Origin: a virus | IMG/VR virus record: IMGVR_UViG_3300022937_000008 | Span: 32,001 to 96,000 of that record | Reading direction: 5' to 3' (one strand) | Length of the DNA: 64,000 nucleotides | Shown: in pieces, positions 4,124 through 7,215 of the stretch | Layout: the number at the start of each line of letters is the position of its first letter | Position numbering within the stretch: the stretch's first letter is position 1 | The notes under the pieces: model-generated | The model's input: only the letters and a program-made list of their open reading frames with translations | Told to the model about the DNA's origin: nothing | Database searches by the model: none | Position numbers and translations under genes: made by a program

Positions 4124-5206
4124 TTATTCTCCACTAGTTGCTACTTCAGCCTCCTTGCTAGTTTCCTCAACAACTTCTTCTTGATCAATGAGTTCTGGTT
4201 TAGCATTAAGGTCTGAGATTATCATATCTAATTTATCTCCAACCCACGCTTTACGATACTCAATATGGTCATTGCCTGCAAGGTCAGTGTATTTAAGTCT
4301 ATTGCCTTCTTTTTTCAAAATACCTTTACCTTCGAATAAATCAACCAGTCCTGAATAAGGATCCATTCCTGTTTCATATGGAATCTTAACCTGTACTGCT
4401 TCAAACGGTTTTGCGTAACGAGTTTTCATTACTTTACAAGCCGCTCTAATACCACGTACATCAGTTACTTTGTTACCGTCTTCATCTTCTTTCAGTTTCA
4501 ATTTACGCATTGCTACTACAATTGAACTTGCATAGATAAAGCCTTGACCACCTGAGATTTTATCATCTGGATCAAACATATCTTGTGATGCATAAGTGTG
4601 ATTAGTTGCTACAAGTCCTACATTATGTGAACCAAACATATTAACCGAATTACGAACAAGTGCTGTTAGTGCTTTAGGCTTACGACCCATATCACCTTTT
4701 AAATCACCCTTGTCAAACTGATCAACATCTGTTGGAGTCAGTAGCATACCTAGTGAATCAATTACAAACAATACTTTCGGACGATCTTCTTCTGCCATTT
4801 CTCTATACTCTTTCATAAATTCTGAAATAGTTTTAGCGACATCGTCGATCATACTCATGTTAAGTTTAAGTAATTTTTCTTCACTTGTATCAACATTAAG
4901 TGCCTGCAACCATTGTTCGTCAAGTGCGTTCTCTGAGTCAATAAGAACTACAAAGATACCTTGATCTTGTGCTGCTTTAACAATATTTGCTGAACAGAAG
5001 TATGATTTACCACTACCTGATTCACCTGCAAATACAGTTACCTTTCCTAACGGAACACCTTTGTGAAAATCTCCACTGATCAAATAATTGAGTGCATAGT
5101 TACCTGTGCTAACCCAATCAGTGGGATCATTAAAACCAATACCAAGTCCGTCAATACTTTTAGTAAGGCTTTTTCTAAATTTACTAATATCAAATGGTTT
5201 TGCCAT
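4124..5206 (-). CDS. uvsX: UvsX / RecA-like recombinase
   Basis: Walker A GESGSGKS, IDSE, VIDSLG and SGGQG motifs; start at MAKPF preceded by GGAGA. Confidence 0.95.
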   Translation of the reverse strand: MAKPFDISKFRKSLTKSIDGLGIGFNDPTDWVSTGNYALNYLISGDFHKGVPLGKVTVFAGESGSGKSYFCSANIVKAAQDQGIFVVLIDSENALDEQWLQALNVDTSEEKLLKLNMSMIDDVAKTISEFMKEYREMAEEDRPKVLFVIDSLGMLLTPTDVDQFDKGDLKGDMGRKPKALTALVRNSVNMFGSHNVGLVATNHTYASQDMFDPDDKISGGQGFIYASSIVVAMRKLKLKEDEDGNKVTDVRGIRAACKVMKTRYAKPFEAVQVKIPYETGMDPYSGLVDLFEGKGILKKEGNRLKYTDLAGNDHIEYRKAWVGDKLDMIISDLNAKPELIDQEEVVEETSKEAEVATSGE

Positions 5207-5227
5207 GTTTATCTCCTTCCATATACT

Positions 5228-5252
5228 ATAGGGAGTGACTAGCACTCCCTAT
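5228..5252. terminator. Stem-loop between gp32 and uvsX
   Basis: ATAGGGAGTG-actag-CACTCCCTAT, a perfect 10-bp inverted repeat; no U-tract on the coding (-) strand. Confidence 0.5.
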
Positions 5253-5262
5253 GTATTTTTTA

Positions 5263-6246
5263 TTAGCCTTGTTGTCTGTTACGAATCATTGCAAGAATAT
5301 CTTGCGCTCTATTTGCGCTGTCATTACCTGCTGTAGATTCTTCAGCCGCTGGTGCTGCTGTTTCAGTTACTGGCTCTGCCGCTGGAGTTGGAGTTGCTGC
5401 TGCCGGTGCAGATGGTGCTGCCTTACTTGTTACATTCGGATCACCTGTCTGCTGTGACATACCTGCTGGACGGAAGTATTGTCCCCAACGTTCCATATCA
5501 TATGCTTCACCGTCTACTGACGCTTCAAACATTTCTTTCATTACTTTAAGTTCAACTTCAGTTGGCTTCTTAGGTAAGAAGTCTGATAAGTTAAACAATC
5601 CATGACTATCAACTGCTGCTTGTTCTTCATCAGTTAATGATCTTTCTCTACGTGACCATTGTGATGTTGAGTAATCAGCATAGCCGCCTTTAGAAGTTTT
5701 CTTAATTCTAAAGTCTACGCCTTTTAGATAATCTGTTGGAAGTTCTTCCAACTCAGGATCCATTAAAGCACTTTTAATAATTTGGAAAATTTGTGGTCCA
5801 ATAATAAAACGTCTAATTGGATTATCTGGGGTAGTTTCTTCGTTTAGTGGATCATCTGAAACAAAGCCTTGGAAAATGTATGAACGCTTTTTCCAATACT
5901 TACGGCCCATATCTTCTAGTGACTTGTCTTTAAACCAGCCACGTACTTCAGATAGGATCGGACAAGTAGTACCGTCATTGTACATTTCCACGCATGGAAC
6001 CTGAACAATTGTTTGACGATTGTCTGACTCGCCTTTAACTCCCGCAAATGGAAGTTTGATCATTGCACGTTCAACCCAAAAGAATGTGTTGGCTGAGTTA
6101 CCATCTGGTAAGAACCTTACCACGGCTTCTTTGCCTTCTTGCATATTCCAATGTGGGTAAACTGCGTTATCGCCGCCACCTGTGTTTCCAGATGTACGTG
6201 TTTGAGCTTCTTGAAGTTTAGCTCGGATTTCTGCTAATGTTGCCAT
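5263..6246 (-). CDS. gp32: gp32-like single-stranded DNA-binding protein
   Basis: VVRFLP, CPI, KKRSY and GYADYSTS motifs; low-complexity C-terminus; adjacent to uvsX. Confidence 0.9.
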   Translation of the reverse strand: MATLAEIRAKLQEAQTRTSGNTGGGDNAVYPHWNMQEGKEAVVRFLPDGNSANTFFWVERAMIKLPFAGVKGESDNRQTIVQVPCVEMYNDGTTCPILSEVRGWFKDKSLEDMGRKYWKKRSYIFQGFVSDDPLNEETTPDNPIRRFIIGPQIFQIIKSALMDPELEELPTDYLKGVDFRIKKTSKGGYADYSTSQWSRRERSLTDEEQAAVDSHGLFNLSDFLPKKPTEVELKVMKEMFEASVDGEAYDMERWGQYFRPAGMSQQTGDPNVTSKAAPSAPAAATPTPAAEPVTETAAPAAEESTAGNDSANRAQDILAMIRNRQQG

Positions 6247-6944: not shown

Positions 6945-6973
6945 AAAAATGCTCCGCTTTGTGAGCGGAGCAT
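6945..6973 (-). terminator. Rho-independent terminator after pqqA
   Basis: 10-bp stem ATGCTCCGCT/AGCGGAGCAT followed by a T-run on the minus strand. Confidence 0.85.
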
Positions 6974-6992: not shown

Positions 6993-7064
6993 TTACTTGT
7001 TCATGATGTACATAGTAACTTCAAATCCAAAGCGCATTTCTTCTGCTACTGGCTTAGTCCACAT
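6993..7064 (-). CDS. pqqA: PqqA, pyrroloquinoline quinone precursor peptide (23 aa)
   Basis: MWTKPVAEEMRFGFEVTMYIMNK*: MWxKP start plus RxGFEVTMY with the conserved E-x-x-x-Y; AAGGAGA RBS; downstream terminator. Confidence 0.95.
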   Translation of the reverse strand: MWTKPVAEEMRFGFEVTMYIMNK

Positions 7065-7092
7065 AATGTGTCTCCTTTTCAGATTAAATTAT

Positions 7093-7140
7093 GTAAACAG
7101 TTCATCGGAGATGCTGACCCAAAGTCCGATTTGAGTTCAC
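7093..7140 (-). ncRNA. Putative structured cis-regulatory RNA in the pqqA leader
   Basis: Nested pairings GUGAAC/GUUUAC, AUCGGA/UCCGAU and GAC/GUC immediately 5' of the pqqA RBS. Confidence 0.55.
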
Positions 7141-7144
7141 CTAG

Positions 7145-7175
7145 AAAATAAAAGTGTAGTATTGCTACTACACTT
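7145..7175 (-). terminator. GCAA-loop hairpin with U-rich tail upstream of the pqqA leader
   Basis: AAGTGTAGTA-GCAA-TACTACACTT followed by TTATTTT on the minus strand. Confidence 0.65.
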
Positions 7176-7176
7176 C

Positions 7177-7215
7177 TATTTAACTCTATTATAAATGATT
7201 AATTAAAAAAATCAA
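7177..7215 (-). promoter_or_regulatory. Sigma70-like promoter plus late TAAATA upstream of pqqA
   Basis: TTGATT-16 nt-TATAAT at 7215-7188 and TAAATA at 7182-7177. Confidence 0.55.

Follow-up and report, generated by a model that had tools for sequence, protein, structure and literature searches.

The question raised by this locus is how a phage controls its copy of pqqA, and what the leader in front of the gene contributes to that control. The window, by which we mean the whole 64,000-nt stretch that was analysed, is part of a 114-kb IMG/VR virus record (IMGVR_UViG_3300022937_000008, positions 32,001-96,000), and its gene content is T4-like. In our preferred reading, to which we give a probability of roughly 0.55, the leader would be a host-derived pqqA control cassette, in which a promoter, a 5' stem-loop and a conserved RNA motif work as an ON-type translational switch. 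The gene and its immediate signals are as follows.

7077-7072, minus strand: Shine-Dalgarno sequence AAGGAG, 7 nt upstream of the pqqA ATG
7064-6993, minus strand: pqqA, 23 codons, ATG at 7064, with EVTMY as the E-x3-Y crosslink motif
6949-6973, minus strand: strong intrinsic terminator closing the one-gene pqqA unit, with a stem of 10-11 bp, 6 GC pairs and a T-run

The 23-aa ORF matches the Pfam family PF08042 (PqqA) with an E-value of 1.4e-9 and 38.1 bits, compared to a curated cut-off of 21.1, and it contains the Glu-x3-Tyr crosslink motif that is required of PqqA, a peptide of about 23 residues. The ribosome-binding site named in an initial annotation of this DNA is confirmed as AAGGAG, and the terminator folds with -18.1 kcal/mol (z -5.4). 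The upstream neighbour of pqqA on the minus strand is a 750-aa ORF (9480-7228), for which a Pfam search found no family at a significant E-value. Just downstream of the pqqA unit lie a UvsX-like ORF (4124-5245) and a gp32-like ORF (5263-6246), both identified by eye.

As an auxiliary gene, pqqA is of a known kind. Viral PqqA was reported in 2020 for the Lake Baikal population VP_266, likewise a case of phage-borne pqqA in Methylophilaceae viruses, and was read there as an auxiliary metabolic gene supporting the PQQ-dependent methanol dehydrogenase (Coutinho et al., PMC7678222); that paper covers the gene only and describes no promoter box, leader RNA or switch. The pqqA coding region of the window shows 80-84% DNA identity to the cultured OM43 Methylophilales phages Melnitz, MEP401/402, MEP301 and Venkman. 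All five cultured OM43 phage genomes carry an intact but unannotated pqqA, and the papers on these phages, including the Melnitz paper (Buchholz et al. 2022, PMC9004378), do not mention it. The MEP402 copy is known from the DNA match of the window coding region, and the other four are located as follows.

L001:2995-3069: unannotated intact pqqA of Melnitz-1
L002:1018-1089: unannotated intact pqqA of MEP401
L003:1513-1584: unannotated intact pqqA of MEP301
L004:1504-1575: unannotated intact pqqA of Venkman

At the Melnitz locus, an opposite-strand 'hypothetical protein' is annotated across pqqA and a tRNA-Leu gene adjoins; the promoter box and the -10 described below are kept there, in a short leader that lacks the RNA motif. 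A degenerate pattern on the peptide core finds intact pqqA in at least 120 IMG/VR contigs, and in bacterial data with one genome per species the degenerate pattern shows that the same PqqA peptide type is nearly confined to Methylophilaceae.

The centre of the leader is a nested fold, which the initial annotation suggested as a possible cis-regulatory element. It is a linear stack of three stems with two internal loops.

7140-7093, minus strand: conserved pqqA leader motif of 48 nt, GUGAAC/GUUUAC enclosing AUCGGA/UCCGAU, -12.3 kcal/mol
7140-7135/7098-7093, minus strand: stem P1
7134-7131 opposite 7103-7099, minus strand: internal loop 1, UCAA opposite GAACU
7130-7125/7109-7104, minus strand: stem P2
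7124-7122 opposite 7111-7110, minus strand: internal loop 2, CUU opposite UC
7121-7120/7113-7112, minus strand: stem P3, with a 6-nt loop

Folded alone as a single sequence, the motif reaches a z of only -1.8. The comparison of leaders gives a different picture. Leaders of unrelated contigs have CUCAAG...GAC...CUCUC...GAnCUG in common, while the intervening stems change compensatorily. In a MAFFT alignment of 12 sequences, 87.5% of the cells are paired and 9 of 12 pairs are changed on both sides, and RNAalifold independently predicts the same two stems from this alignment. A covariance model (R1) was searched against 245 fetched loci plus the window, 120 metagenome loci and whole genomes, and gave 82 matches, 68 of them distinct, in phage contigs, metagenomes and host genomes. 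The window motif scores 57.4 bits (E 3e-11) and is the sole match both in the window and in the 114-kb record. Alignment A3 of the 68 distinct sequences has 90.8% of its cells paired and shows changes on both sides in 12 of 14 pairs. Its covariation score reaches 0.617, while shuffles score 0.235 and slid controls 0.15 or less; A3 was fitted to the model and is hence biased towards it, but the independent MAFFT and RNAalifold result agrees. P3 emerged from a mutual-information scan; 31 sequences close it with U-A and 30 with G-C.

The loops are as telling as the stems. Eleven loop bases are invariant in the 68 distinct sequences, comprising UCAA opposite G-A-x-x-U, the A that tops P2, one U within CYU, and the UC facing CYU. 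G-U pairs are frequent, occurring in 48 of 68 sequences at one P2 pair, so the fold is read on the sense RNA strand. These comparisons show that the nested fold is a genuine RNA element, acting in cis and conserved in the pqqA leaders of both phages and bacteria. The suggestion of the initial annotation is thus upheld, with strong covariation in all three stems and abundant compensatory changes across phage and bacterial leaders. Two other readings of the fold were dropped: an attP site or DNA-level palindrome is ruled out by the strand-specific G-U pairs, and the strand order of the internal loops does not suit a k-turn or loop-E.

Rfam 15 cmscan gave no relevant match for the window leader at E-values up to 10, and nothing relevant for two host versions and one phage version at E-values up to 1. 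A 'pqqA RNA motif' that the initial annotation mentioned is absent from Rfam 15 and from the searchable literature, where no relevant work joining PQQ and riboswitches was found either. The leader motif is an uncatalogued cis-regulatory RNA family.

The motif is tied to one gene. In 82 of 82 R1 matches a pqqA start lies 23-43 nt past the end of the model match, and 31 of these loci have a second, tandem pqqA. Two scans of IMG/VR with patterns independent of pqqA gave 38 matches, of which 2 are cut by contig ends; all 36 complete ones precede pqqA, 35 by automated count plus L390, whose pqqA was accepted by eye as an FGFEITMY variant. The possibility of a chance fold in AT-rich intergenic DNA can be weighed here. 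It would fit the weak single-sequence z and the promoter-like matches, which occur at chance rate (see below), but the covariation, the invariant loops and the exclusive linkage to pqqA over more than 100 loci refute it, and we regard it as next to impossible.

The motif is also tied to one group of hosts. Among 151 Methylophilaceae genomes there are 11 strong matches, one per genome, each at pqqA and all in genomes of 1.2-1.4 Mb, together with one weak extra match (E 0.002) away from pqqA. These strong matches all belong to one streamlined genus, none being found outside it among the 151 genomes, and within the genus 33 of 42 species have exactly one motif per genome; most of the motif-free genomes are smaller than 1.1 Mb. 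This genus-limited, single-copy occurrence indicates that the motif is a host element captured by phages. Many phage pqqA copies, including that of Melnitz, do without it, indicating that it is dispensable. The distribution points to this OM43/Methylopumilus-type genus as the host of the window's phage. A host MAG (L247) has tandem orphan pqqA copies about 125 nt apart (L247:1591-1662 and L247:1789-1860), which are not followed by pqqB and of which only the first has the leader motif.

Upstream of the motif lie the signals from which the leader would be transcribed.

7230-7213, minus strand: promoter-upstream box TAATGATTTTCTTTATTG, an imperfect palindrome just upstream of the -35
7215-7188, minus strand: sigma70-type promoter, -35 TTGATT (7215-7210), 16-nt spacer, -10 TATAAT (7193-7188), 10 of 12 consensus matches

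The initial annotation, whose span of 7065-7215 omits both this box and the strand at 7067-7057 that is discussed below as the partner in an anti-start helix, had proposed the sigma70-like TTGATT-16-TATAAT, and the proposal stands. By themselves, promoter-like matches occur in the window at chance rate (6 found, 5.8 expected); the support comes from the conserved box, which keeps a fixed spacing to the -10 in relatives. Of 348 distinct pqqA leaders, 109 have the box in the form TAATGATTTTC-nn-TA. Strong -10 hexamers of phage and metagenome leaders lie at +37 from the box start in 30 cases and at +36/+38 in 12, and the -10 of the window is at exactly +37, like that of about 40 other phage leaders. 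In bacterial genomes the strong -10 hexamers peak at +58/60. By phylogenetic footprinting, then, the predicted sigma70-type promoter is real, and the transcript would start near 7181-7180.

The window and 5 host genomes each have a single copy of the box, and it is always located at pqqA; a role as a regulon site was rejected, since in the 5 host genomes it is found solely there. The first three box bases double as the TAA stop codon of the 750-aa ORF upstream. The C-terminal ...ELEELERIKSLIQF end of this ORF is kept in five relatives (L300, L310, L340, L301 and L097), and in these its stop codon is also fused to the pqqA promoter box. The host boxes (L247:1431-1446 and equivalents in L380-L384) are 21 bp farther from the -10 than in the phage cassettes, a shift of two helical turns that would keep the box on the same DNA face. 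Its centre would be near -41.5 in phages and about -62 in hosts, like class II and class I activator sites, respectively. At some bacterial loci the box is a near-perfect palindrome, CTAATGA-TTT-TCATTAG.

Between the promoter and the motif there are two further elements.

7183-7176, minus strand: TTAAATAG, with TAAATA at 7182-7177; both a weak second -10-like element and the A-tract partner of the hairpin U-run
7181-7144, minus strand: 5'-proximal stem-loop, with a 10-bp core (7175-7166/7161-7152), a GCAA loop and a U-run (7151-7144)

From these elements the initial annotation derived a temporal switch, in which early sigma70 transcripts stop at the GCAA hairpin and a late transcript, starting inside the stem about 5 nt after TAAATA, weakens the hairpin and can reach pqqA. 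TAAATA is indeed present, but its role as a late promoter is not supported. A T4-type late promoter (TATAAATA, with an ATAAATA core) was looked for at the site and not found, the site reading GTTAAATA. ATAAATA is depleted in the window, with 12 copies compared to 27.6 expected; 10 of the 12 are on the coding strand, and 9 of these 10 are intergenic, most of them 5-30 nt before ORF starts. Judged by this placement, ATAAATA is the putative late-type signal of the phage. In contrast, TTAAATA is scattered inside long ORFs (12 of 14 copies) and has no promoter-like placement elsewhere in the window. Four ATAAATA copies (45312-45305, 21612-21606, 12918-12912 and 9494-9488, minus strand) are only 5-7 nt before an ATG and sit between Shine-Dalgarno-like purines and the start codon; if ATAAATA is the late -10, those late mRNAs would be nearly leaderless.

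Relatives show what the -10-like element corresponds to. In leaders with a box-to-motif distance that is 10 nt shorter, TTAAATAG aligns with the true -10, TATAAT or TTTAAAT (alignment A4). This counterpart is the only -10 of the shorter relatives and is an ordinary sigma70 -10 at +37 from the box, which places the start within the first bases of the hairpin stem.

The 10-bp GCAA hairpin with its U-rich tail was correctly described. Pairing between the A-tract and the U-tract lengthens it to 16 bp, with -17.7 kcal/mol and a z of -7.5, and the inferred transcript start is at the base of its stem. Across 16 relatives 92% of the cells pair and 4 pairs are changed on both sides; the window's phage lineage keeps the hairpin, usually with a GNRA loop. 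The stem and UUUUAUUUU are present, while the U-run is not universal among relatives and is missing in the hairpin-bearing L265, L286 and L269. In L053 and L061 unrelated hairpins, which lack a U-run, occupy this position. No such hairpin exists in the syntenic relative L301 or in the hosts, where the motif's own P1 is at the 5' end. A terminator scan did not list the GCAA hairpin, probably because its stem extends into the U-run.

The temporal switch is not supported, although some features speak for it. A hairpin with a U-run is terminator-like and is conserved with compensatory changes, the -10-like element beside it is conserved as well, and the start of the shorter relatives falls in the first stem bases. 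However, the late-type motif of this phage is the other heptamer, the element is an ordinary -10 in relatives, and the U-run, or in L301 the whole hairpin, can be lost. Efficient termination at the hairpin and U-run would also halt transcripts from the pqqA promoter itself, and a conserved host-type promoter running straight into a full stop would be pointless. We consider an early-stop/late-start switch quite improbable. In phage T4, gene e (lysozyme) and soc are under early/late control by a hairpin inside which the late transcripts start. The pqqA leader resembles them in having a hairpin near tandem -10-like elements and, in the shorter relatives, a start within the stem, but it differs in that there is no canonical late motif, the ribosome site lies outside the hairpin, and a separate helix, in competition with the motif, hides the AUG.

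With either the hairpin or P1 at the 5' end throughout the relatives, the common feature is a stem at the 5' end of the mRNA. In this lineage the hairpin most likely protects the 5' end, and it is likely to have a second role in stopping read-through from the late gene upstream. Stem-loops at the 5' terminus that stabilise an mRNA are known from the ompA 5' UTR. The pqqA leader is similar in that a stable stem begins no more than a few nt from the inferred start of the transcript, and different in that the stem is followed by a U-run and comes directly after another gene, so that it may also terminate upstream transcription.

The element that links the motif to translation is a second pairing of P1.

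7098-7088 with 7067-7057, minus strand: anti-start helix, GUUUACAUAAU pairing with AUUAUGUGGAC, -11.2 kcal/mol, z -3.9

The strand GUUUACAUAAU starts with the whole P1 3' strand and AUUAUGUGGAC takes in the AUG, with the Shine-Dalgarno sequence in the loop of the helix. The anti-start helix is found in the whole-leader minimum-energy fold of the window; the two alternative states are predicted to be only about 1 kcal/mol apart, the fold with the hidden AUG being the more stable. P1 and the anti-start helix have six P1 3'-strand bases in common, an overlap that is smaller than in host-type leaders. The P1 5' strand GUGAAC is similar to the start region GUGGAC, as expected if both strands compete for one partner.

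This arrangement is general. A partner for the P1 3' strand exists downstream, at the start codon or Shine-Dalgarno (SD) region, in 70 of 71 distinct leaders; it lies over the AUG in 28, over the SD in 9 and next to the SD (at most 4 nt away) in 33, and the alternative helices have a median z of -2.4 compared to arm-shuffled controls. For 69 of 71 leaders, P1 is missing from the minimum-energy fold of the full leader, in which the SD or AUG is paired, and enforcing P1 has a median cost of 4.5 kcal/mol. In 31 of those 69 the SD has the P1 5' strand together with the invariant CUC as its partner. In the 33 leaders whose alternative hairpin merely abuts the SD, occlusion needs a second predicted pairing, that of the SD with the invariant CUC. 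Occlusion of the ribosome site is thus achieved in three ways that vary by lineage. RNAalifold found no consensus for the host-type leader tails, whose hairpins are in different registers, and these tails were therefore folded sequence by sequence.

A stem that is under selection, is not in the ground state and competes with occlusion of the ribosome site is the signature of an ON-type switch. On these folding predictions, the leader is probably an ON-type translational switch for pqqA. It combines a conserved, covarying, aptamer-like structure in a 5' UTR with a predicted mutually exclusive pairing at the ribosome-binding site, as in the expression platform of a riboswitch, and the motif is a good candidate orphan riboswitch. 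The add adenine riboswitch of Vibrio vulnificus, a translational ON riboswitch, has a three-way junction aptamer. The pqqA leader is like add in that P1 closes a conserved aptamer-like fold, that the 3' strand of P1 can pair with the SD/AUG instead to give a repressor helix, and that the ribosome site is predicted to be hidden when no ligand is bound. Unlike add, its motif is a linear three-stem stack with two internal loops and no counterpart in Rfam 15.

The same leaders bear on a simpler explanation, in which the 5' stem-loop and the motif are stability elements only and shield a short, abundant mRNA from 5'-end-dependent decay without any switching. In hosts and many phages, P1 or the added hairpin starts within a few nt of the inferred start site, and 5'-terminal stems are generally known as stabilisers in decay that involves RNase E and RppH. 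Generic protection, however, has no need of 11 invariant loop bases, and it leaves unexplained why the P1 3' strand has a partner at the ribosome site in 70 of 71 leaders, in three ways. We judge it unlikely that protection is the whole function.

The product of pqqA is the precursor peptide that PQQ synthesis consumes. In the mechanism that we propose for the ON-type switch, the sigma70-type promoter, together with the box, would start transcription near 7181, and the RNA would open with a long stem-loop that may protect the 5' end and block read-through from the upstream late gene. The three-stem motif with its two invariant internal loops, which is common to pqqA of the host genus, would come next. 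According to sequence and folding, the P1 3' strand has two possible partners, the P1 5' strand, with which it forms the motif, and the start-codon region, where its pairing hides the AUG. Because the fold with the hidden AUG is computed to be more stable, we propose that P1 is kept closed by a ligand, by a factor or through co-transcriptional folding, which would free the ribosome-binding site. The phage would thus produce PqqA under the host's own logic.

What holds P1 shut can be read in two ways, each of which we regard as possible but put forward only tentatively. The motif may be a new riboswitch class that senses PQQ or a methanol-oxidation signal, such as PQQ itself, an intermediate, a lanthanide or another metal ion. 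Alternatively, a host protein or small RNA may dock on it, or it may act as a thermosensor or kinetic timer, in which cases it would be no small-molecule riboswitch. The small size of the motif and its restriction to one gene, in one genus, once per genome suit the latter, and the ON-type logic suggests no obvious ligand for the control of a biosynthetic precursor. On the other hand, nothing separates this reading from a metabolite sensor, and the motif is kept by phages of several backbones, which is simplest with a ubiquitous small molecule or ion as the trigger.

Host-type regulatory RNAs on phage genomes have precedents. Cyanophages bear glutamine riboswitches, and in these, too, a cis-regulatory RNA of host type sits on a phage genome. 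Glutamine riboswitches are also present in the Methylophilales phage Melnitz (Buchholz et al. 2022, PMC9004378), and they differ from the pqqA motif in belonging to another RNA family, with a known ligand and other downstream genes.

In OM43/Methylopumilus-type bacteria, which abound in both the sea and lakes, the flow of carbon and energy is driven by the PQQ-dependent methanol dehydrogenase, and a single-copy structured leader with a switch-like platform offers a testable handle on pqqA regulation in such streamlined genomes. Many phages have captured the motif and a box that is unique in the host genome, indicating that viruses can import a metabolic gene together with its sensor and promoter. 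If the motif is a new riboswitch class, translation of a consumable PQQ precursor would be switched on by it in a very abundant ocean and lake methylotroph genus, and, with motif and box captured by phages of several kinds, the viral supply of PqqA would obey the host sensor. The data on the motif and cassette also provide a host-prediction marker for uncultured phages. Finally, the viral contig L053, which carries the pqqA cassette, also has a match to ROSE_3, a heat-shock RNA thermometer, at L053:4506-4572, with 51.7 bits compared to a gathering score of 43.
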